DNA from: a virus
Strand: one strand, 5' to 3'
DNA: 45,353 bases
IMG/VR virus record: IMGVR_UViG_3300005393_000308
The notes below the pieces were generated by a model. The model searched no databases and was not told the origin of the DNA. It saw nothing but the letters and a program-made list of their open reading frames with translations. This document shows, piece after piece, positions 2,642 to 15,150 of this stretch (its first letter is position 1; every line of letters starts with the position of its first letter). Made by a program: the position numbers and the translations under genes.

Positions 2642-3243
2642 GGCTGTCCACCCGCGATCCAGTAAAACTTCTGCCATCCGGGTTTTTCCATGTACCAACC
2701 ACAACTACGATCAACAGAGGCGGTGGCCACGGCCTTGTGGCTGCGTGTCAAGAGCGGCAGATAGATGTCAGATGTCGGTATAATATTGCCAGTTAGATCG
2801 CAATCGTCGAACAGTAACAAATCAGGTTGATAACCACGAAGTGACGGTCCGCTCGCCATACGGTGCACCTGAATAATAGAGCCGTTTGCAAATTCGATAT
2901 AGCCAGGCATACCCGAATGCTGTCTTTTTACTGCGCTGTGAAGACTTAGACTACTATTAATACATGACATAAGGAGACTAAACAACCATATGTGTACTCC
3001 TTGTATATAAACTATCTTACTACCTGGTGTAGTATCTGCTGTATAAAGAGCCAGCATAGCAAGCGTGGAAGTTTTGCCGGTCTGTCTGTCGCCAAAGATT
3101 ATTATCCTGTCTGAACTGGAAAGGAGAACCTCCTTCTGGTTCTCCGTCGGCTGCCACCCGAACTCGATACCAGCCCATGTGACAGGATCAATGATATTGG
3201 TGAACGATTCCTTCTGGAACTGATCAGTATTCAAAGTAACCAC
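2629..3243 (-). CDS. Terminase-like ATPase domain-only protein (paralogue of adjacent TerL)
   Basis: DPVTWAGIEFGWQPTENQKEVL, GDRQTGKT, IEFANGSII and LLLFDD align with the TerL N-terminus; no nuclease domain. Confidence 0.75.
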   Translation of the reverse strand: MVTLNTDQFQKESFTNIIDPVTWAGIEFGWQPTENQKEVLLSSSDRIIIFGDRQTGKTSTLAMLALYTADTTPGSKIVYIQGVHIWLFSLLMSCINSSLSLHSAVKRQHSGMPGYIEFANGSIIQVHRMASGPSLRGYQPDLLLFDDCDLTGNIIPTSDIYLPLLTRSHKAVATASVDRSCGWYMEKPGWQKFYWIAGGQPCIN

Positions 3244-3670
3244 GACTGATTCGACGCGCCTCGCTTCCTAACACGGAATTTACCCTCATCTTGGAGTCCT
3301 GCAGGGCCTGCACGGCCCGCTGACGCATGGTCGCCTTGGGCTGTGTGTCCATAAAGAAACCACTGCCGATGCCGGTTCTGTAACCCGGGCCAGGGACGTT
3401 GGTAATCGACTGCCACCATAGATTACCTATTCCCTTGCCAATCGCCGACGCTACATCTTTCAGGCTCCAGGCCAGAGCAATGGGAGTAGCATACTGCCAC
3501 AAAGCGAAAGTAAGGGCACCACGCGCAAAAGCACCGACAGTCGAAGCGTCTTTATGCTCTCTTTTGTATTTGTAGGCATCCGACGCGGCTATGCCGACAT
3601 TTATTACACTGCCGACAGCTGCACCCCCGGCCAGCCGCTTAGTAACATATCCACCAATTAACCTGATCAT
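3224..3670 (-). CDS. Gly/Ala-rich hypothetical virion protein
   Basis: 148-aa ORF, translationally coupled within the late operon. Confidence 0.6.
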   Translation of the reverse strand: MIRLIGGYVTKRLAGGAAVGSVINVGIAASDAYKYKREHKDASTVGAFARGALTFALWQYATPIALAWSLKDVASAIGKGIGNLWWQSITNVPGPGYRTGIGSGFFMDTQPKATMRQRAVQALQDSKMRVNSVLGSEARRISRGYFEY

Positions 3671-3942
3671 CCGGTAGCAATCCCGCCTATCATCCTGTTA
3701 GCGGCAATCTTCCCTAGTACATTGGGTGCATAATGCCTTGCCAGCATAGCCCCCGCTCCGATCCCGCCACCGATAAACGCACCGGTCATGAAACCGCTAC
3801 CTCGTCCGTCTGGCGGGGCGGCAATAGCACCAATAACACCGCCGGCCAAACTTGCAGCAGCTGCATGCTTTAAAATGTTGGCCCAGACCGGATTCTTCTC
3901 AGCCCATATACTTGCAGAAGCAAGCATGTTATAAATACCCAT
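3667..3942 (-). CDS. Small Gly-rich hydrophobic protein
   Basis: Start MGIYN after AAGGGGGG RBS; glycine-zipper-like segments. Confidence 0.55.
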   Translation of the reverse strand: MGIYNMLASASIWAEKNPVWANILKHAAAASLAGGVIGAIAAPPDGRGSGFMTGAFIGGGIGAGAMLARHYAPNVLGKIAANRMIGGIATG

Positions 3943-3959
3943 GAGAATCCCCCCCTTAT

Positions 3960-4496
3960 CTACTTCCTCAACTGGTGCAACGCCAAAGCAAGAGAACCAT
4001 CGGCGCCCAAATTGTCGACCCAATTTGGTTTGATCTGTTGGTTGTAAAGCCCTGGCGTAAGGGCTTCTCCAGTCAGAGAAGTCATTGGGCCATAATTAAC
4101 CAGACCCACCTGGGCATTCCGCATACCGCCCAAAACACCTACGGCCGTGGTACCCCAAAACAGGACATCGCCAGCACCCGAGCGTACCTTCCAGCCAATA
4201 AGGTTGTTTTCTTTCTTAAGAAACGGCCTGACAAATGGCTTGGCCGCAGCTGTGGCAGCATCAATATAACCGCCGGCTCTTTCTATACCTCTAAGAGTAT
4301 TTTCCCCAGCTGTACTAGCTGCAGTTTTTACAACGCCAGTAACAAAGTTGCCAACGCGGTCAATTGTAGTTTCTCCAGGAACATTTCTTACAGCCATCGC
4401 GCCAGCTATTTTAGTTCCCTTGAGAGCCGCCTGTGCTCCTTTGGTAATGCCATAAATGAACGGTTTACTGAGCAAGTCAAGAATAAACATGTACAA
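3960..4496 (-). CDS. Gly/Ala-rich hypothetical virion protein
   Basis: ORF co-oriented and closely spaced in the late operon. Confidence 0.55.
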   Translation of the reverse strand: MYMFILDLLSKPFIYGITKGAQAALKGTKIAGAMAVRNVPGETTIDRVGNFVTGVVKTAASTAGENTLRGIERAGGYIDAATAAAKPFVRPFLKKENNLIGWKVRSGAGDVLFWGTTAVGVLGGMRNAQVGLVNYGPMTSLTGEALTPGLYNQQIKPNWVDNLGADGSLALALHQLRK

Positions 4497-4506
4497 TCAG
4501 TCCGCC

Positions 4507-5058
4507 TTACACAAACGGTATGCCGGCTATATCAAACTGCCCACGGTCATTGGTAAATGGGCCACCCTGACCAGTAACAAAACGCCATCCTGTGCCCGCG
4601 GCAAACAAGCTGCCTGCGGTCATTCCCATGCGCTTGCCCCAGTTGGTCCAGTCGCCACGAGGCGAGAACCAGGCCTTAGCGCCGCCCCATGCCGCCTTTA
4701 CCGGAGAGGTCAACGCTCCCCCAGCGGCCTCAAGACTTAACATAGCGTCATCTTGAAGCATTTTGGCCCGTTGTTCTAATAGATCAGCTACATACCCCCC
4801 GCCAATAGCCCTCTCAATGCGTGCTTCGTCGAGCAGTCTCTTAGCCTCGGCATTCATTTGGGCAGCCGTTCTCAAGCCTCTGCCCGCTCCTCTTATTCCA
4901 CCAGCAGCAGAGAACGGGGCAATACCTTCTCTGACTGCCGCAACAGTTCCACCAACCGTTTTGTTTGCCGCAAGCTTCTCGATAACACCACTGGCAGTTT
5001 GTCTTGCTTTCTTAACTACTAAATCTGCAAAACCACCAAAATTAGCTACTAATCCCAT
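4507..5058 (-). CDS. Gly/Ala-rich hypothetical virion protein
   Basis: 183-aa ORF with GGAG RBS, in operon. Confidence 0.6.
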   Translation of the reverse strand: MGLVANFGGFADLVVKKARQTASGVIEKLAANKTVGGTVAAVREGIAPFSAAGGIRGAGRGLRTAAQMNAEAKRLLDEARIERAIGGGYVADLLEQRAKMLQDDAMLSLEAAGGALTSPVKAAWGGAKAWFSPRGDWTNWGKRMGMTAGSLFAAGTGWRFVTGQGGPFTNDRGQFDIAGIPFV

Positions 5059-5064
5059 AATAAG

Positions 5065-5739
5065 CTAACTCCCTTCTTGTTGCTGTGCTTTGACTTCAAT
5101 TGTCTTATACAGCCCCAATTCTCTGGCTTTTGATATAATCTCCGAAGCCAGCGAACTCGGATCTCTCTTTACTTGCGAACCCTCACGATCCTTCCGCGTG
5201 GAGTTCAGGAGTTGGAGGATGCGGTGGCGCTCCCGCCGCAACCGCTCCTTATATTCCACCACACGCGCTATCTCTGGCTTGGTAATAGGCATACCGTCAT
5301 CGCTTACAAAATAGACCACGTCCTCGACGAAGTCGGGATTGGCGGCCATGTAGTGGTCGGCCCGCATCAGCTGCACATCCAGGTCTACCAGTTCCCTGAC
5401 CAGGCTAAGGTCCACTATATCGTCCTCTCCGACATCCAGGTAGCCGCAGTATTTGTCAAACAGGGTGAGGATCATAGAGATTTCAATTGGGCAGCGCCCG
5501 TTCTTCGGCCTCTCTTTGGGGTCTATGTAGCACGTTGAAGCATAGGGGCAGTTGGAGTTGCGGCAGATGATGGGCACCTGGGCCATCAGACCGTGCTTCA
5601 ACCTGTGCATATAGTTAGCTCTGGCCACACCGTTAATTGAACTCTCGTCTATTCCCCATACCTCGGCGATCAAGCCGAGGTCTTTGACGTTGGCCGTAAG
5701 ATCGACTGCTTTTGCTTTTACATCTAAGGCCTTAGACAT
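5065..5739 (-). CDS. Hypothetical phage protein with Cys cluster (possible terminase small subunit)
   Basis: CRNSNCPYASTC...CPIE plus helical C-terminus; lies upstream of terL; function inferred from position only. Confidence 0.55.
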   Translation of the reverse strand: MSKALDVKAKAVDLTANVKDLGLIAEVWGIDESSINGVARANYMHRLKHGLMAQVPIICRNSNCPYASTCYIDPKERPKNGRCPIEISMILTLFDKYCGYLDVGEDDIVDLSLVRELVDLDVQLMRADHYMAANPDFVEDVVYFVSDDGMPITKPEIARVVEYKERLRRERHRILQLLNSTRKDREGSQVKRDPSSLASEIISKARELGLYKTIEVKAQQQEGS

Positions 5740-5783
5740 AAACGAATAGACAGGGAGCTACCCTGTCCCAAACCTCCGTCAAC

Positions 5784-6161
5784 TTATTTGTTAACCCACG
5801 ACCGCGACGTACTGTGGACCGTCACTCCACAGCCGCCGCCGAGTGTAATACAGTCTCCAACTCTGTGAACCGGTATGCCGTTTACAAAACAGTTCTCCGA
5901 ATGGTCACGCGCCCAACCGACACCGCAGTGCGGGCAGGTCGTTTTACATTTGTCACCACGCCGCACCAGCTGTTTCCCCTCTGAGTAGGCATTATGACTG
6001 CCCTCGACAAAATGTCCCGTAACAATGTGCGGACAGCACTTTCCGCCATGGTCGCAAATACCTATAATAGTGTCACCGACGCGCGCCTGCAGACCGAAAT
6101 CACTACGCGGAATCCCTTCCTTAAAACCATAACGGCACGTGTAGCGTGTACACTCGCTCAT
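5784..6161 (-). CDS. PAAR-like baseplate spike tip protein
   Basis: Three repeats ARVGD / VRRGD / VHRVGD, FVNGIP, Cys/His metal ligands. Confidence 0.85.
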   Translation of the reverse strand: MSECTRYTCRYGFKEGIPRSDFGLQARVGDTIIGICDHGGKCCPHIVTGHFVEGSHNAYSEGKQLVRRGDKCKTTCPHCGVGWARDHSENCFVNGIPVHRVGDCITLGGGCGVTVHSTSRSWVNK

Positions 6162-6231
6162 AACAGCACCTCTAACATCTATAGTACCAGCGAAAGTTAC
6201 AGGCGCGCGTCGGTGTTATGCTTTAACGGAA

Positions 6232-6991
6232 CTAACTCTGGTAGTTAACTTTGTAACTGCCGTTGGCGAAAAGTTTCACCTGCACAGTTGAGTTATTGGT
6301 GTAGCGATAAGAGAAATCAACATACGGCTGGGCCAAGTCCCACGAGCCAAGCATATCAAACTGAGCGCTCAGTTTGTCCGTCGCCGCTGCATCGGTAGCA
6401 GCATCCATCTCCAGGTAGTAACCGAACCTGATCGTCTTGCTCGTCCCAATAAGGGTCATCCAATCAGTGGATGGTATGAAGTTAAAAACATTCGGCGGGA
6501 TACCGTTTGCCCTGACTTCAGCCAGGTTGTTATGGTTGATGGTGCTCCAGGTTCCATTGCTGTAGGTCTTCCAGGTAACGCCACCATCCACGCTGACTAT
6601 CAGCCTGATTAACCCGCTGCCCGACTGGTTATAAGTTAAAATGAAGCCGTCTATGTTTTCTATATAGTCCAGCCGGATATCTCCAGAGGCCAAAAACTAA
6701 TTTAGGGTATGGCGTAGCCGTTAACCTGCATGTCTTGGAATTGGTTCCATCAGTCCAGACAAGTAGCTGCGGCGCAACAAGAGTGGAGATATTAACACCA
6801 ACTAAAGAATCCATTCCATAAGTATCAAACATGGTCTGAGTCACCGGTGCCGGGCCCACATCGACCCAGGTGCCGTCAGAGTATCTTTTGATAGTATCAC
6901 CATCTTGGAAGAGATATTTAACTGTTTCAAAGTATATCTCCTGTGTATAGGTGTCAGAAATACGATGCCAGGTCACTACAGCATAACCCAT
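6232..6991 (-). CDS. Tail/baseplate-associated protein (one +1 frameshift at 6692-6696)
   Basis: ATG 6991 with GGGGGTGA RBS (MGYAVVTW...); removing one base of the A5 run joins PYPKLV to LASGDIRLDY; contains SVDGGVTW motif. Confidence 0.65.
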
Positions 6992-7302
6992 GATATCACC
7001 CCCATAAGTGGCATAATATACTTTTTGTCTTAACCGAAAGGAATTGCACCACTTGAGCCAGCCGTTGTAGGATGCAACAACACTACGATCACGGTCGGTA
7101 AGTTCTTTCTTCCCTAACAGTGGCATAAGCTTGCGCTTCATCTTCTTAAGCGTGGACTTGCGTAGGAGCGTATAAACTCCAAAACTGCGGTAGCCGACAA
7201 AATCTATCCCACGGATACGGCTCGGGAAAACCTGCCAGTTTTCCTTGATTGAAAGATTGAGCCTGTTTTGCAGGCATTCAGCAATCTCTAGTCGCAGTTG
7301 AT
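6976..7302 (-). pseudogene. DGR reverse transcriptase, C-terminal fragment (after IS insertion)
   Basis: LNLSIKENWQVFP, GIDFVGY, SYNGWLKWCNS motifs; continues in frame with the N-terminal part once the IS is removed. Confidence 0.9.
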
Positions 7303-7418
7303 CTGACATTCTCCCACGGCTGAAGCCGTGGGGTTCACGGGTCCAGCGTGGTGCAGACGATTTTATATTTCGCGGATGCCCATGGCAGACCTAAGCGGCT
7401 TGCCTGAACGTCCCCTGT

Positions 7419-8673
7419 TCACGGCCTTTTAGGTGTGGTTTTCCTCCACACGAACAGGTTGACCGCAGGGCGTGCCAGTGCGCCCACTACTCCCGACCGT
7501 TCCGGCAGTGCCAGACCGGCCTCACGGAGATACCTTTGCAGAATATTGTACGCGCCCACCAGGTCGGCGTTGAAAGCTCGACTGCAGTGGACAAAAAAGC
7601 CCCCGGTATATACGGGCCTTTTTAATCCTCTTGCCGCACGCCGGGCAGGTTGTGCTGGTGCTTTTCTCCGGTGCCTTGATAACCCGGATGCCAGCTAATG
7701 CCGCCTTATAAGTGAGCAAGCTTGTTATCTTGCTGAACGGCCAGGTGTGCAGCTTCTGGTTGCCGGCGTCTCCCCAGTCTTTATCCGCGCGAATACCTTT
7801 TAATTCGCCGACGAGGATGACAGAGACGTTGCGGGCAAGCGCCAGGTTGACCAGCCACCTGGTCAGCACGTGCAGGTAGTGGTTGCGCTGCCTGCCCCAC
7901 TTGGCGTTCAATTCAATACAATGCTTACTGGAGGACCTGGAGCATTTGACCTTTTCCTTCTGGAAGTACCGGTCGAGCGCCAACAGTTCCCCGCCGGGGA
8001 CAATAAACGAATAGCCGTCGGATATAAGTCCAGCCGTGATGTTCACGATGCCCAGGTCGAGGGACATGATATTTTCGGTTTCACGGTATTTGATCTGAAC
8101 CTTGTGGGTGATATGCAGGCGCCATTCCCCGGTCTTAGGTTCGTACACCAGCTTGACCTGCTGCACTTTGCCCAGGACGGCGTCCGGAGGAAGCCGGTAT
8201 TCCAGAATAATTTCCCGCCTTTCATAGGTCTTGGGCAGTTTCAGTTTCACCTGGTTGTCCGGCAGCATTTCGAAGGCGTTTTGTTTGAAGGTTACGGTGC
8301 TCAGCGAGTCCTTCTTCCTGAATCCCGGCGGATTGGCTTTCTTGTCACCGTTCTTCCGGTGTGAGAACCACGAACGGTAGGAGTCGTCCTGCTCGCCCAG
8401 GACTTCCTGCGCGGACTGGGATGGTAGGAGCCTGTACCAGCGGTTGCCTTTGAGTTCCCGGCACTGCTCCGGAAAGCCGGGGATCTTGCCGGTTTCGCTC
8501 CAGGCGGCGCGCCGGTGGTGGTTGGCCACGTTCCACAGCTTTGTAGCAGAAAAGCCCAAGAGGCCCAGGAGCAGGGCGTCCTGGTCGGAAAGGCCGACGA
8601 CCTTGGTCCTGGCTGTGAGAGTCTGCGTCGGTACGTCATTATTGGACTTCTTCTTCCGGGTCAGTTCAATCAC
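7419..8673 (-). CDS. tnpB: TnpB RNA-guided endonuclease (+1 frameshift in A6 run 7593-7598)
   Basis: RuvC-I SLDLG, RuvC-II GEL, TSTTCPACG; RuvC-III FNADLVGAYNI appears after correcting one base; GTG start overlaps tnpA stop. Confidence 0.9.
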
Positions 8674-9068
8674 CCTCTTTTCTTCTGCATTTCGATGTAC
8701 TTCCGGATGGTGTCGGAGGAAACATCGCCGGCGGTGGACACGAAGTAGCTCCGCGTCCACATGGACGGCATCCGGGCGATGTGCTCAAACTCCCGGCGCA
8801 GGTGATGTGAGGATACGCCTTTAAACCGCGCCACGATATCGTGCGGCGCCAGATTCGGCGGTGCGTTGACGAACAGGTGCAGGTGGTCGGGCATGATCTC
8901 CAGGGCCAGGATTTCCAGTTCCAGCTTCTCAGCCACCTCCTGGATCAGTTCTCTCAGCCTGGCTTCGACGGGACCGACCAGCACTTTGCGCCGGTAGCGC
9001 GGGCACCAGATAAAATGGTAGTTTACCAGTGATACGGACGTGTGTTTGTGTCTATATTTCTGCTCCAT
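8670..9068 (-). CDS. tnpA: IS200/IS605 Y1 (HUH) transposase
   Basis: YHFIWCPRYRR, MPDHLHLF (HUH), WTRSYFVST, YIEMQ catalytic Tyr. Confidence 0.97.
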   Translation of the reverse strand: MEQKYRHKHTSVSLVNYHFIWCPRYRRKVLVGPVEARLRELIQEVAEKLELEILALEIMPDHLHLFVNAPPNLAPHDIVARFKGVSSHHLRREFEHIARMPSMWTRSYFVSTAGDVSSDTIRKYIEMQKKRG

Positions 9069-9177
9069 AGCTATATTATAGCTGTTTTAAAACAAAGGAG
9101 CAACATATGTCCGGAAATATAAATAAGCCGCGCTTTCATCCCACGGCTGAAGCCGTGGGCTTTCCCGCGCAGTTGAT

Positions 9178-9871
9178 GTAAGAACGACTTATCGCCATGG
9201 AGGATTACCATGTCATCCATATAGCGAAGGTAGTATTTAATACCCTTCTCTTCCTTCAACCAGTGGTCAAAATACGTCAGGTAGAAATTAGCCAGGTACT
9301 GCGAGGTATAGTTACCAATTGGTAACCCCTTGCCGCCGGGAATACTGTCAATGATTTCATCCAGGAGCCAGAGAAGTTCTGGATCTTTGAACTTCCTGCG
9401 CAATAGCTGCTTCAAGATAGTGTGATCAACACTGGGGAAGAACTTAGCAACATCCAGCTTTAAGCAGTACTGCGAACCATCCCTGTCGCGCATAAAGGAA
9501 TGTAACATTTTAAGGGCTGCATGAATTCCTCTTCCCTCAATGGCAGCATAAGTATTATGGATAAACGTATTAAGCAAAGTGGGCTTAATGACGTTCATGA
9601 CAGCATGATGCACAATCCTATCGGGATAGTAAGGGAGCTTGTAGATTTCCCGCTCTTTGCCGCCATCGTTAATAATGAATATCTTGTACCTAGAGGTACG
9701 ATAGGTGCGATTGAGCAGTTGCCGTTGGATTTCCAGGAGGTATCTGTCAGGATTCGCGTCCACCATTTTAACTTCAGTATAATAAGATTTGCCCCTACGA
9801 GCCCTGGCGTGGGCTAACCGCAGGTTCTCAACGTCGCAAATCCTGGAATAGAGATTGCCGTATCTACGCAA
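9178..9871 (-). pseudogene. DGR reverse transcriptase, N-terminal part (interrupted by IS605)
   Basis: GKEREIYKLPYYPDRIVHHA, LKLDVAKFFPSVDH, GLPIGNYTSQYLANFYL, YLRYMDD; reconstructed full length about 339 aa. Confidence 0.95.
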
Positions 9872-9967
9872 GCCTTACCTCCAGTTACTTTGTGCCTTTT
9901 CGCCGAGCCTTCGAGTATAGAGCCTACCAGCACGGCTTTTGACAGGCTTATGTTCTGCCAAGAGGCA

Positions 9968-10154
9968 CAGTAGTTATCCGGGTAAACATAGAAAAGCACA
10001 AAGCAAGGTGCCTGCCGATATTCGAGTTCACATTCGAGGCGGTGTAGTTGACATTCAGGCAAAACGCGCCCGTGTTCGACGCGTTAGACCAATTACCCCT
10101 GAAGATCGGAAGGTAGGACGCGTAAAGATTACCGTTGAAGCCGGATAACTACTG
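9968..10154 (-). ncRNA. DGR template RNA: TR (10006-10135) enclosed by a 14-bp inverted repeat
   Basis: 130-bp ungapped match to VR; AAY-rich; CAGTAGTTATCCGG (9968-9981) is the reverse complement of CCGGATAACTACTG (10141-10154). Confidence 0.9.
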
Positions 10155-10162
10155 GAAATTAG

Positions 10163-11215
10163 TTAATAAACGAGGCGCCCGCCGACAGCCGAGCTCACAC
10201 TCGAGGCGGCGTAGCTGACATACAGGCAAAACGCGCCCGCGTTCGACGCGTAAGACCAATCACCCCCGAAGATCGGAAGGCAGGACGCGCAAAGATTACC
10301 GTAATCACAAAGCTTAGTGGTGGCGCTGCCGCCACCGACCTTAATAATAAACCCAAGCGGTGCATCGGGGAATATGTCAGTAATATAACCACTAATATTT
10401 GCGACAAGGCCTGTATTGTAGACGGCGTACCCGGCGCCTGTATTGTTGAATCCCTTGTTGCCGATACAGATCTGTCTTGAGGCATTACAGTATAAGCCAT
10501 CTACCCACTTGTGAACATTACCCCAGAAGTTCTCTATTCCCCGGTAGGACATGGCGTGCTTGTCGTCAGTACCTAGATTAGCTTCGTTACCGGTATGGTT
10601 GCCCAGGGAGAGGGTTCTGCCGGTGGGAATGGTGGCAGTGTTGCCGCCTACAAACCCACGGCCTATTTTGGTCTGACTATTAAAGTGTGCATATTCTACA
10701 AGGTACAGCATCTGGATAGCGTATAGAAGATTAAAGTCCAGCTGGCCCCAGCCGTTGCCGTTGTTCTTAGCATAGTTACGGAAGGTGCCGATAGTTTGGC
10801 TGACTGTAACGGTTTTATTAGGCAGGCTACGCAGTCTGTTGGAACTGTCTACCCATCCCTCGAAGGCACCGATATAGCGGTAATCCACTTCGGGGACAGG
10901 GTCGCTGTTTTGTACATCGCACAGCCTGTCCCGCTGGCGGTAGAAGGCCGGGTGGACGACATAGCCGTCTTTGGGTTGATTTGAGACGCCGAAGACCATG
11001 TCGTCACCGTTGGCATACTTGGTGCACCAGAACTTAGGTATCTCCACCATACAGTTTTGGCCGGCCGACTCCACGGCAGCCCAGTCTACCGCAGTCCCAT
11101 CTTCCTTCTTATTGGAATCGTTAGGGTCAAGATAATAGGCGACCGTGCCGTTGGGATTGAGAATACATCTTCTCATCCATACCCAGGGAAGGTTCATGTC
11201 AAATGGGGTGGCCAT
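10163..11215 (-). CDS. DGR target protein, putative receptor-binding/tail fibre protein with C-type-lectin-like fold
   Basis: MVEIPKF, YIGAFEG, YRGIENFWGNVHKWVDG and C-terminal GGDW...AGAF...VGGRL containing the VR. Confidence 0.88.
   Translation of the reverse strand: MATPFDMNLPWVWMRRCILNPNGTVAYYLDPNDSNKKEDGTAVDWAAVESAGQNCMVEIPKFWCTKYANGDDMVFGVSNQPKDGYVVHPAFYRQRDRLCDVQNSDPVPEVDYRYIGAFEGWVDSSNRLRSLPNKTVTVSQTIGTFRNYAKNNGNGWGQLDFNLLYAIQMLYLVEYAHFNSQTKIGRGFVGGNTATIPTGRTLSLGNHTGNEANLGTDDKHAMSYRGIENFWGNVHKWVDGLYCNASRQICIGNKGFNNTGAGYAVYNTGLVANISGYITDIFPDAPLGFIIKVGGGSATTKLCDYGNLCASCLPIFGGDWSYASNAGAFCLYVSYAASSVSSAVGGRLVY
10173..10302 (-). repeat. DGR variable repeat (VR)
   Basis: 16 mismatches versus TR, all at TR adenines on the coding strand (13 A>G, 2 A>T, 1 A>C). 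Confidence 0.96.
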
Positions 11216-11704
11216 TTAAAACACCTCCACTGTTTCAACAGTTTTAAATTGAGTTTTATCAATAATAAGTGTCCACAATCTACCCGTACCTAAGATGCCA
11301 CCGTCAACCATTGGTATATCATAAGAGGTTTTTAAACGCATTGTGCCATCGAAGATCACCTGTGAGTCGGCCCCCTGGAAGCTGGTGGCATCGGCGTTGT
11401 TAAACTCACAGACAGTAGTAATCTTGTCCCGCTCGCCGGGAGTAAACTTGAGTACCTCTATAGGGATGCGCCGAAAGTCCTGCGTTGTAGGTATAGGTAT
11501 ATCAACGACATAGGGAGACGTCTGGCTGGCGGTAATATTGAGTTTGGTGACCTGAGATACATTAACCGTACCGCTGCTGGTGGGGAGCGTAGCCAGGCGC
11601 TCGGCCAGGGTAGGTTTATCGCCCCTGGCGGCGGCGATCTCGTCTCGTATAGAGTTTAGTTGTACGCTGTGGATCTGGTAGTCCTGAATGCGGGTAGCAG
11701 GCAT
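11216..11704 (-). CDS. Tail-associated protein
   Basis: N-terminus (RIQDYQI...EIAAARG...TLAERL) resembles that of the upstream tail protein. Confidence 0.6.
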   Translation of the reverse strand: MPATRIQDYQIHSVQLNSIRDEIAAARGDKPTLAERLATLPTSSGTVNVSQVTKLNITASQTSPYVVDIPIPTTQDFRRIPIEVLKFTPGERDKITTVCEFNNADATSFQGADSQVIFDGTMRLKTSYDIPMVDGGILGTGRLWTLIIDKTQFKTVETVEVF

Positions 11705-11718
11705 CTATTACACCTCCA

Positions 11719-13086
11719 TTAAGCTAGAAGACGCTTGCGGACCGATATTCCGGTAATCAACCCGCTAGCGTTGTAAGTATAGGTCGTGGTAATAATCAGG
11801 TTGCCTTCGGTGACCACTTCCGAGGCTCGGTACCCCTGTTCGTTGTACGTGTACTCTATGGTTTTGTTGACATCTCCAGTCCAAATCTCACGGACGACGC
11901 GGTTCTGTCCGTCGTACTCAATGGAGATGTCTACGTTACAGTCGCCGAGCTGAGAGTTGAGCCTGTGAGCTATAGAAGTATAACCGCCGGCAGCTGAGGA
12001 TTCGGCGGCCGTGGTGCTCTCCATGATGAACTTCACCCTGTCGCCGTCAGTGAGAGGATAGTTAAATGTTACAGCGTATTCGCTGGTCTCCGTATAGTCG
12101 TTGTCGGGGCCGGGTTCGTACAGGACGCCGTTGACGTAGACGCGCAGCCTGTTTTGGCTAACAGGATAAGGGTAGGATAAGTTGAATAAGGTCTGCCCCG
12201 GGGTTGCCGTAAATGTCTCGGTAAAACCCATTCCAGGGACCAGGTTTTCACATACGAAGCGTACATTTTGGCCGGCCGACAGAGGGTAATTAAATGTGAC
12301 CGTATATGCGTCTGTCTCTATATAGTCGGCGTCAGACCCCTCTTCCATCAGCACACCGCCTACAAAGACACGCAGCTTCTTTTGTCCAACAGGATAACGG
12401 TGCTGGAGGGTGAAGGTCTGCTGGTTTTCGGTTGAGACATGCGTCTCGCTGAAAGTAAAACCGTTGATTACGTCGTCAAGAGAATCCAGCCGCTGGTCGA
12501 GTGAAGCATGATTGCCGCGGGCCTCGCTTACCTCGCTCTCCACCACCGTGAGTCGGTCACCGATGGGGCCGTATCCTTCGCTGACGGCGTCTATTTCACC
12601 CTCCATGGCCTGCAGCCGCTCGCTCAGGGTGTCATAACCTCCGCGGGCATCGTAAACCTCTCCTGTGGCCCCGCCCTTCTGCAGGAAGGGCCGCAGATCG
12701 GATACGGTGACATCCGCGGTTGTTTGGCCGGTCGTCACCGCGCCCAGGAGCAGGCTGTCAGCATCCTGCAGCGCCTGCACGGCGGCTATAAGCGTCCCGT
12801 CTTTTTTCAGGTATATGTAGTAGACAGTCTGCGGCTGGGGCTGGTATATATGGCAGGTCAAAACAGAATGCGCCAGCACGGGAACATCGTCTATAAACGC
12901 AAGGCCTGGGTTAATTTCTACGATAAGAGAGTCGCCGGACGGATAGACGGATTTTATCTTGTAGTCGGACAGAATACTGTCGAGGCGTTCCTTGAGTGTG
13001 GGATATTCCCCGCGCGCGTCTCCTATCTCCTGCACGACACCATCGAGCCGCGGGCTGTTTATCTGGAAATCAGATATCCTGCGCAT
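11719..13086 (-). CDS. Tail fibre/baseplate-associated protein with internal repeats
   Basis: Three ARGxxxxLxxRL motifs; two roughly 65-aa repeats (FxET...QxxFxL...LRVxVxGVL...DYxET...VTFNYPL); YD-like C-terminus. Confidence 0.7.
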   Translation of the reverse strand: MRRISDFQINSPRLDGVVQEIGDARGEYPTLKERLDSILSDYKIKSVYPSGDSLIVEINPGLAFIDDVPVLAHSVLTCHIYQPQPQTVYYIYLKKDGTLIAAVQALQDADSLLLGAVTTGQTTADVTVSDLRPFLQKGGATGEVYDARGGYDTLSERLQAMEGEIDAVSEGYGPIGDRLTVVESEVSEARGNHASLDQRLDSLDDVINGFTFSETHVSTENQQTFTLQHRYPVGQKKLRVFVGGVLMEEGSDADYIETDAYTVTFNYPLSAGQNVRFVCENLVPGMGFTETFTATPGQTLFNLSYPYPVSQNRLRVYVNGVLYEPGPDNDYTETSEYAVTFNYPLTDGDRVKFIMESTTAAESSAAGGYTSIAHRLNSQLGDCNVDISIEYDGQNRVVREIWTGDVNKTIEYTYNEQGYRASEVVTEGNLIITTTYTYNASGLITGISVRKRLLA

Positions 13087-13347
13087 TAATATGTATCCTC
13101 CAAAACCGAACAGGTGGACAGACGTCCTCGCCTAAAGGGAAGAACCTTCAGAGCTACCCGCCTGCCGCTCTCGCCTATTACTTATAGTACCGCCCGGGCG
13201 GCAAGACTGTTGTTAGATAAGGAGAATTGTGGTATCATGGTGAAAAAGGGAGATAACCAGAGGAAAGGGGAGATGTGAGAAACCAAATGTCATCAAATCA
13301 ATGATAGCCAACTTATTTCAGAATTCACCAGTCTGGAGGGATGCATA

Positions 13348-15150
13348 TTGGAGATCATAAAGAGGATTATGGGACTGCTTATAACGCTGGCGGTAGTTGC
13401 GGCACTCCTGCCGCTCCCGGCGGTCGCTGACGACGGCAACGACGGCATTCTGTCATACGATGAAATGCCGAAGGTAATATGCGAGGGGTTTGTCAAGCCG
13501 CTGAGAGTGACGCTGGGAGACGACGGCTCCATTTATGTACTGGACGGCATGGTGCTTAAGAAATACAAAGACGGCCAGGTGAGCGAAGTGGCAAGCCTGC
13601 TCAATAGCGGCCAGTACTTCGACAAGTATAACCTGGGGGAAGTGGAGGACCTGTACACGTTCAGGCCGGGCACCATGGTCTATGCCCATGGGGCGGTCTT
13701 CATGGCGGGACTGATGGTGGATAAGCACGAACCGAGACCGTATGGCGAGTGGCGCCGGAGTTATCTCAGCAACCAGTACAGCATCGGTTCGGCGTATTCT
13801 GTAATAGTGAAGGTAACCGACCATTTCGAGCCGATACTGGTCGAGGGGCAGGAATCGGATCTGGCCCTGAACGAAAGCGAGCTTCAGGGATTGATGATGA
13901 ATGATCCATCTTACACCGAAGATTGGATGTACGAAGATTACACGACCCGCTACAGGAATCTCTACATTCCAAACCTCGTGCTGTTCCCGGACGGCAACAT
14001 ATATGTCATAAAGAATACGGCAATCAAACACAGGGACACCGACAACACAATTACATTAACACACAGGGGAATAGGGAAATTATACGACCCCAAAGAACAT
14101 TACATTTACAGCTCGTGGGGCGGCGCCCGGGCTCTCTACAAAATATACCCCGACGGAAGCCAGGAAATCATTGACGAGGGCACATACAACATGCTCAAGG
14201 AACCTGACAAATGCACGCTCGGAGACTTCGTGATTTCAAACAAGTACCTGCGCGAGATGAACGACGCCGACCCAGACAACGACACCATCTATGTCCTGCC
14301 GTCGCAGGAAGACCCCGAAAACTCGGTCATCGTCTGCAACGAAAGTTATATCTGGAAGTACAACTTTAAGGAACACACTTACAGACAGGTGGAATTCATC
14401 CCGGGCAACGCAATGCCCAGCGGCAACCAGATATTCCTGATGCCCGATCACGTATATGCGCCCACTATGCCACGCACCACGAAGACGCTGGGCAACTTCT
14501 TCTACGCCGGCAAAGTCTGGCGTCTCTACGCCGACAGGTACTACCAGGACTTTGGCGATCTGGGGCTTAAACCTTATGAAGAGTACGGGAGTTCAGTAAT
14601 TGACTGGACAATAGACGAGGATAGAAGGATGATTTACGCGCTCCTGGACAGCGGTAAGGTGACGGCGGTCAATTTCAGCAAGTACGTGCGCTACGCGCCC
14701 GGGCAGAACGAAGATTACCAGATGCCGGGCGGCACAAACGATGACACCGCCTTCAAGGTGATGTTTGACCAGAACAGGCAGGCCATCTACTCGGTCAACG
14801 GAAGCAAAGGGCCTTATGTGAAGGACGGGACGCTTTACGTGCCGATTGACCCCGTGGTCTATCTCCTCGGCCTCAGCGTGCATGAAGACACCCTGTGCCA
14901 GACGGGCACCGGCAACAACTACGCCATAAAGCTGAGCAACCCCAACTTCAACACGTCAGAGTATGTCTGCGTGGAAATCAACAGAGAGGGCAACGTCATC
15001 CAGAAGCACGCCAAACTCTGGCACCTGATGAACGTGATATACAAGCTCACCGGAATGAAGTATAACACCAGGTACGACGTGACCACCAACACGCTGTACA
15101 TCCAGCCGGACGACGGGGCAATACAGCTGTTCAAGGGGCTGTGGAATTAA
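13348..15150 (+). CDS. Secreted protein with probable copper-amine-oxidase-N-like (stalk) C-terminal domain
   Basis: Signal peptide (KRIMGLLITLAVVAALLPLPAVA); PYVKDGTLYVPI motif. Confidence 0.65.
   Translation: MEIIKRIMGLLITLAVVAALLPLPAVADDGNDGILSYDEMPKVICEGFVKPLRVTLGDDGSIYVLDGMVLKKYKDGQVSEVASLLNSGQYFDKYNLGEVEDLYTFRPGTMVYAHGAVFMAGLMVDKHEPRPYGEWRRSYLSNQYSIGSAYSVIVKVTDHFEPILVEGQESDLALNESELQGLMMNDPSYTEDWMYEDYTTRYRNLYIPNLVLFPDGNIYVIKNTAIKHRDTDNTITLTHRGIGKLYDPKEHYIYSSWGGARALYKIYPDGSQEIIDEGTYNMLKEPDKCTLGDFVISNKYLREMNDADPDNDTIYVLPSQEDPENSVIVCNESYIWKYNFKEHTYRQVEFIPGNAMPSGNQIFLMPDHVYAPTMPRTTKTLGNFFYAGKVWRLYADRYYQDFGDLGLKPYEEYGSSVIDWTIDEDRRMIYALLDSGKVTAVNFSKYVRYAPGQNEDYQMPGGTNDDTAFKVMFDQNRQAIYSVNGSKGPYVKDGTLYVPIDPVVYLLGLSVHEDTLCQTGTGNNYAIKLSNPNFNTSEYVCVEINREGNVIQKHAKLWHLMNVIYKLTGMKYNTRYDVTTNTLYIQPDDGAIQLFKGLWN

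Follow-up and report, generated by a model that had tools for sequence, protein, structure and literature searches.

Does a transposon that encodes a putative RNA-guided nuclease, once it has landed in the reverse transcriptase (RT) gene of a phage diversity-generating retroelement (DGR), act as a switch that the phage can flip, or is it simply a selfish lesion? The question is posed by IMG/VR record IMGVR_UViG_3300005393_000308, a viral stretch of 45,353 nucleotides (nt; the whole stretch is referred to here as the window), which its large terminase, helicase and HNH endonuclease genes identify as a phage fragment. At 6996–9871, on the minus strand (to which all coordinates of this locus refer), an RT gene is split by an insertion sequence (IS) of 1875 bp, located 11 codons past the YMDD motif. 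Our analysis indicates that this element, an IS608-like member of the IS200/IS605 family lying immediately 3′ of a TTAC tetranucleotide, is quite probably a selfish loss-of-function insertion and not a regulator, with a chimeric stretch at its left tip that may represent a repair joint.

The reverse transcriptase gene is split between palm and thumb

The upstream fragment of the RT gene ends ...RYMDDMVILHGDKSFL, after which the reading frame of the window runs on into the IS as far as 9071; the insertion parts the palm (through YMDD) from motifs 6–7 and the thumb. When the IS is removed in silico, the two fragments join to give an RT of 332 amino acids that can be aligned with eight intact phage RTs with no gap where the fragments meet; all eight conserve a local LHQLR motif at this point. 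The RT of phage Perkons (Psychrobacillus), 60% identical to the N-terminal part, is colinear with both fragments: its match to the N-terminal part ends at 91258 and that to the C-terminal part starts at 91260, these being adjacent codons of a single intact gene. A reading made earlier from the sequence alone (the sequence-only reading) had placed an IS605 element just past YMDD and proposed that its removal restores the frame; the gapless protein and the Perkons colinearity bear this out, and the family assignment is upheld by the PF01797 match of the transposase, the hairpins, the TTAC target and an IS608-like geometry. The locus that it delimited also stands, with the exception of its start at 6976, which falls ~20 nt beyond the RT stop codon at 6998–6996—a codon that extra bases at 7022–7026 and 6999–7003 hide in the window.

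The insertion is not a product of assembly. Two contigs from JGI sample 3300001095, L019 and L020, belong to the same phage and together cover positions 2682–13870 of the window; the independent contig L019 likewise carries the element and crosses both of its junctions without a branch. With two assemblies in agreement, an assembly chimera is ruled out as the source. The break between L019 and L020 falls at 7168–7223 of the window, in a 56-nt overlap that lies 80–135 nt outside the right end of the IS and not at an IS boundary.

All mismatches between the template repeat (TR) and variable repeat (VR) of the DGR, over a repeat of 135 nt, occur at TR adenines; because TR and VR differ only at such positions, the DGR was active in the past. 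The product of its target gene is a tail-fibre-like protein. The RT gene itself is interrupted after codon 231, and a search of the window for a second RT found none: this is a formerly active DGR that has no intact RT gene left, at any rate in cis, and is predicted to be silent. We also considered whether the split RT could re-assemble from two separately translated fragments. The conserved right-end terminus of the IS, GGGAGAATGTCAG (7303–7312, minus strand), does supply an ATG (7309–7307) in frame with the C-terminal fragment (MSDQLRLEI...), and a Shine-Dalgarno-like GGGAG is present, too near this ATG to form an obvious ribosome-binding site; with such unusable spacing, and no evidence for re-assembly, we rejected the idea.

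Ends, target site and relatives of the element

Ten distinct full-length copies of the element define its boundaries: they become homologous immediately 3′ of TTAC and remain so as far as ...TG(T/C)CAG, beyond which the flanks are unrelated. Relatives were recovered by protein-guided searches at 65–94% identity from Bacillota genomes (Peptococcaceae, Desulforamulus, Moorella) and from metagenomes, the 94% being that of copies L002 and L021. TTAC is found at 14/14 left junctions of related copies, mostly preceded by a further T. A repeat of the flank is absent from eight of the ten copies; in the other two, repeats of 9–10 nt stand in place of left-end bases, with no net addition, and so are not target duplications.

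Subterminal hairpins are present at both ends of the element, without terminal inverted repeats, and both the HLH motif and the C-terminal tyrosine can be seen in the sequence of TnpA. Together, these features support assignment to the IS608-like members of the IS200/IS605 family, with ends and TnpA apparently intact and with excision and integration predicted to proceed as single-stranded DNA.

The resemblance to IS608 itself, from Helicobacter pylori (IS605 group; TTAC at 19 nt, TCAA at 10 nt, left guide AAAG; PMC3201880), extends to several details: tnpA followed by tnpB on one strand; insertion 3′ of TTAC; an AAAG left guide that abuts the left hairpin on its 5′ side, with cleavage 18–19 nt 5′ of that hairpin; a right cleavage site within 10 nt 3′ of the right hairpin; and, again, no inverted repeats. 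The phage element differs in having TCAG at its right end with a GAAC guide, where IS608 has TCAA (PMC3201880), in the range of its family, whose hosts are thermophilic/anaerobic Bacillota and a phage, and in possessing a 10-nt tip identical to its own flank.

Five host genomes were searched for further copies of the IS, and no new full-length copy with both ends was found. In a second phage, the viral contig IMGVR_UViG_3300034759_000309 (L042:2501–2800), all that is left is the last ~69 codons of a related tnpB, at 89% identity, and a right end whose TGTCAG terminus has been lost; this is a decayed remnant of the family.

The tnpB reading frame

As read in the window, tnpB is broken by two additional bases, a T at 7593–7598 and an A at 7427–7430. 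Where the window has a run of six T (7593–7598), L019 has five, a reading that gives an intact TnpB of 426 amino acids, which matches eight relatives over its whole length at 72–93% identity. The three RuvC catalytic residues D206, E290 and D370 are invariant across the nine TnpB proteins, taking the L019 reading for the phage; the window reading shifts D370 out of frame.

Comparing the window with L019/L020 over 11.2 kb, we see just five differences, none of them a substitution. In every case a homopolymer is one base longer in the window (7593–7598, 7427–7430, 7022–7026, 6999–7003 and 6692–6696), and an open reading frame (ORF) that is intact in the contigs is broken as a result, be it tnpB, the RT C-terminus or a gene of 252 amino acids (6990–6232). 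Because all of the differences share this character, the window's tnpB frameshift probably reflects an error of sequencing. Other ORFs of the window may carry similar false frameshifts.

A predicted omegaRNA with a guide drawn from the RT gene

Across 19 copies of the family, the last 250 nt of the element are conserved at the DNA level beyond what coding alone explains. Folding this segment with RNAalifold, with 500 shuffles and slid windows as controls, produced a consensus of 52 pairs in which 97% of cells are paired and 15 pairs show compensatory changes; none of the 500 shuffles reaches the observed values, and the slid controls pair at 40–54%. The closing helix brings together 7545–7540 and 7312–7307, the latter being the six bases just upstream of TCAG. 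Helix 8 corresponds to the right transposase DNA hairpin, which covaries across relatives and supplies part of the fold signal. The region also returns a weak match to HgcC.

In IS200/IS605 elements with TnpB, the guide of the omegaRNA is the sequence that follows the right end (PMC8612924). Applying this rule to a right end fixed by the ten copies gives ATCAACTGCGACTAGA, which is native RT coding sequence (HQLRLE). The earlier proposal that the guide is RT sequence, next to TTAC, is thereby supported as regards the flank at 7302–7287; as to its choice of TTAC as the target-adjacent motif (TAM), the target side holds at every left junction, with the TAM itself taken from the insertion site. 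Likewise, its concern that the tnpB frameshift might be genuine is probably answered by the five-T form in L019, which yields an intact protein. We therefore regard a guide, a TAM and an intact nuclease as supported, the nuclease being predicted to be active and TTAC to be the motif that it recognises. Since the guide matches the RT gene, any sibling phage that is free of the IS would be a target. The suggestion that TnpB would cut restored or incoming IS-free alleles thus stands as a general expectation for all such elements; there is nothing special to this RT site about it.

The arrangement agrees with known TnpB-omegaRNA systems in the origin of the guide from the flank after the right end, in a TAM equal to the transposase target and in a scaffold that overlaps the 3′ end of tnpB. 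As with the omegaRNA of ISDra2, the segment adjacent to the guide is predicted to form pairs with the 5′ portion of the scaffold, in the manner of a pseudoknot (PMC10097598). The predicted scaffold is, however, longer (~240 nt as against 116–150 nt), and the putative TAM is TTAC rather than TTGAT.

The left tip is a chimera of element and flank

Over its first 10 nt (9177–9168), the left end is identical to positions 7302–7293, the beginning of the right flank. The relatives instead share a canonical tip, A(A/G)AA.CCGCG, which is also that of a mini-element of the same family elsewhere in the window (43484–43560), and alignment of the phage IS to L002, its 94% identical relative, begins only at position 8. 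A second, independent copy shows the same phenomenon: L024 (metagenome contig Ga0308419_1015122, 292–2189) has a 9-nt tip equal to its own right flank, and is otherwise so similar to L022 (99.5% identity) that the exchange is readily seen, ACTGCCGGG in L024 standing against the canonical AAAAACCGGG in L022. The L024 element interrupts a tyrosine-recombinase-like ORF that is restored when the IS is removed. In both cases the overwritten stretch ends at a microhomology with the canonical tip, GCG in the window and CCGGG in L024; the prefix shared by tip and flank in the other eight copies is just 0–2 nt long. Judged from these alignments, it is the tip and not the flank that has been overwritten in both copies, because the flanks retain the coding sequence native to each site (conserved RT residues in the one, the L024 ORF in the other). 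The published accounts of TnpB-omegaRNA elements consulted here describe scarless excision by TnpA, with no description of overwritten left tips.

Two explanations for the repeat were discarded. Transposase chemistry cannot make the chimera, since flank bases that are present twice require DNA synthesis; nor is there a consistent alternative cleavage tetranucleotide. Selection of the target for its similarity to the left tip is countered by the nature of the sequences, the odd tips being non-canonical while the flanks are native coding sequence.

More widely in the family, the first ~7 nt of the left ends (L002–L032) are far more variable than the remainder of the end, and four copies, L027–L030, share an odd tip, GGATACCGCG, at four different sites; tips may be inherited records of earlier overwriting.

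Other features of the window

The coordinates of the main features are collected in Table 1. The gene-less mini-element sits downstream of the helicase gene, where it may interrupt a small ORF starting near 43398. Also encoded in the window, in a neighbourhood of tail-like genes immediately downstream of the DGR, is a small PAAR-motif protein of 125 amino acids (5784–6161, minus strand).

Table 1. Features of the interrupted DGR, of the inserted element and of its relative in the window
Feature	Position	Strand	Remarks
DGR RT, N-terminal part	9178–9871	-	231 codons, TTG start, through YMDD; RVT_1, E 3.7e-18
DGR RT, C-terminal part	6996–7302	-	From alignment with intact RTs; stop codon 6998–6996
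IS608-like IS200/IS605 element (tnpA + tnpB)	7303–9177	-	Ends from 10 related copies; 1875 bp in the window, 1873 bp in L019
TTAC, TnpA insertion target and putative TnpB TAM	9178–9181	-	14/14 left junctions
Left-end tip, ATCAACTGCG	9168–9177	-	Equals first 10 nt of right flank; non-canonical for the family
Left guide and left subterminal hairpin	9140–9163	-	AAAG 9163–9160; hairpin 9159–9140 (20 nt); 18 nt from TTAC
tnpA, Y1 HUH transposase	8670–9068	-	132 amino acids; PF01797, model 1–121 of 121, E 2.3e-41; HLH, ...RKYIE
tnpB	7391–8673	-	426 amino acids in L019; OrfB_IS605 (PF01385) and Cas12f1-like TNB (PF07282)
Predicted omegaRNA scaffold	7303–7545	-	Overlaps tnpB 3′ end and right end; RNAalifold on 19 copies
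Right end	7303–7336	-	Guide GAAC 7336–7333; hairpin 7332–7313 (20 nt); 10-nt linker ending in TCAG 7306–7303
Right flank, putative 16-nt guide/protospacer, ATCAACTGCGACTAGA	7287–7302	-	Guide rule from PMC8612924
RT-17 RNA motif, between TR and RT	9888–9972	-	Rfam RF03020, 41.9 bits against a gathering score of 40.4
DGR template repeat (TR)	10001–10135	-	135-nt repeat
DGR variable repeat (VR)	10168–10302	-	3′ end of target gene of 350 amino acids (10163–11215)
Mini-element, same IS family, hairpins and no genes	43484–43560	+	77 nt; 3′ of TTAC 43480–43483; tip AAAATCCGCG

Discussion

How might the chimeric tip have arisen? TnpA could excise the element scarlessly; TnpB, directed by the 16 nt of RT flank and a TTAC TAM, would in turn cleave an allele free of the IS, whether restored by that excision or newly arrived. 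A cut allele would be repaired from an IS-bearing template, with the element copied back in the process. If the 3′ end left by the TAM-distal cut were trimmed to the first bases able to pair, and then extended on the IS-bearing template, the resulting joint would pass from 10 nt of protospacer into the canonical left end at the GCG microhomology. The lengths are in keeping with the biochemistry of TnpB. With the ISDra2 enzyme, the non-target strand is cleaved at a distance of 15 nt from the TAM (PMC8612924), so that only ~5 nt would need to be trimmed, and TnpB requires ~12 matched nt in order to cut (PMC10097598); the 9–10 nt retained fall short of this threshold, with the consequence that the new left junction would not itself be a target. 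On this basis, retention of 9–10 nt is both expected and safe. The chimera is compatible with a recombination joint, most simply one left as an IS-free allele was mended from an IS-bearing copy; its likeliest origin is a ‘homing scar’ formed by repair of a TnpB cut, to which we give even chances or a little less. The fuller proposal, that the tips are footprints of TnpB cut-and-copy and that the element homed into this phage from an IS-bearing one, as a gene drive spreading a DGR-off allele, we offer more tentatively, and consider it rather more apt to fail than to hold.

Several points tell against these readings. The chimera could arise without TnpB, either by phage recombination between an empty and an occupied allele, with a crossover resolved a few bases inside the heterology, or by slippage at microhomology that creates a tandem IS dimer from which TnpA then removes the first copy. 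Both routes yield exactly the observed order (TTAC, flank bases 1–10, left end from base 11) and would use the short microhomologies, GCG and CCGGG, at which the junctions are seen. They call, however, for rare events at 3–5 nt of microhomology placed 1.9 kb apart, yet the chimera is present in two of ten copies, and they do not predict that the 9 or 10 nt retained should lie just below the cut position and the ~12-nt threshold; we consider a TnpB-free origin unlikely, whilst still giving it some weight. The window itself, moreover, has a frameshifted tnpB; should its lineage truly carry this change, that lineage would have no working nuclease. Its run of six T does place the third RuvC aspartate out of frame, and the element would then be a copy that is moved or lost only via TnpA. 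Set against this are the uniform character of the five differences from the contigs, each disrupting an ORF that they hold intact, and the agreement of the five-T form with the eight relatives through to the last residue, so that a genuine frameshift appears improbable. An RT may also be provided in trans from elsewhere. Lastly, no IS-free allele of the phage was found in the collections searched, the scar being the one sign that the two alleles have co-existed.

The same searches bear on the notion of a reversible switch, put forward by the sequence-only reading, in which precise excision and re-insertion by TnpA toggle the DGR and the phage alternates between frozen and diversifying tropism. 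In its favour, TnpA, both ends and the guide tetranucleotides appear undamaged, excision would rejoin the two RT fragments precisely in frame, and intact and transposon-interrupted variants of a DGR RT are known to coexist in another organism (PMC10907252). An empty allele was not found, however. The pattern of an empty joint (TTAC directly followed by ATCAACTGCGACTAG), or of the left junction, gave no matches in viral contigs, and none in metagenome contigs, where the result is uninformative, as the source sample is absent and the known JGI contig was not returned either. Nor was an IS-free allele of the RT present among 5.8 billion protein clusters, in which relatives of the RT reach at most 68% identity, save for the disrupted 266-amino-acid form itself. 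In IMG/VR the closest RT is no more than 65% identical, hence no sister phage there, and a phage collection had no DNA match to the IS or to 25 kb of the phage. In addition, L019 is unbranched at both junctions and the VR is identical in both assemblies, and TnpA on its own would seldom re-insert the element at this very TTAC. In the published model (PMC8612924; 10.1101/2023.03.14.532601), excision leaves a donor joint that TnpB cleaves, and the element then returns by copying. This in fact runs counter to a switch: as TnpB would bring about re-copying of the element after excision, the nuclease would oppose reversion and lock the RT off. Switching is thus not borne out and we hold it to be very improbable. 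What survives of the earlier proposal is the freezing of the DGR, for which the plain reading is a selfish insertion that would leave the system silent.

A close parallel is Thiohalocapsa PB-PSB1, in which intact and interrupted variants of a DGR RT occur side by side in long reads (PMC10907252). There too a mobile element disrupts the RT and TR and VR remain (PMC10907252). The present case differs in that only the interrupted form is seen, in its phage host, and in the presence of a predicted RNA-guided nuclease aimed at the RT gene.

Gene disruption as such is ordinary: IS605 elements are common in phages, with TnpB relatives occurring in 67 phage records, and DGR RTs broken by transposons have already been reported. 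This locus provides a clean natural case of a predicted TnpB guide aimed at a functional phage gene. The left-tip chimera, for its part, recurs in two independent copies of this IS family and would mark homing repair from sequence alone; were the homing account true, the hypervariable first ~7 nt of the family's left ends would record earlier protospacers, and a genome-wide survey of the mark could measure how far TnpB elements spread by copying as opposed to transposition.

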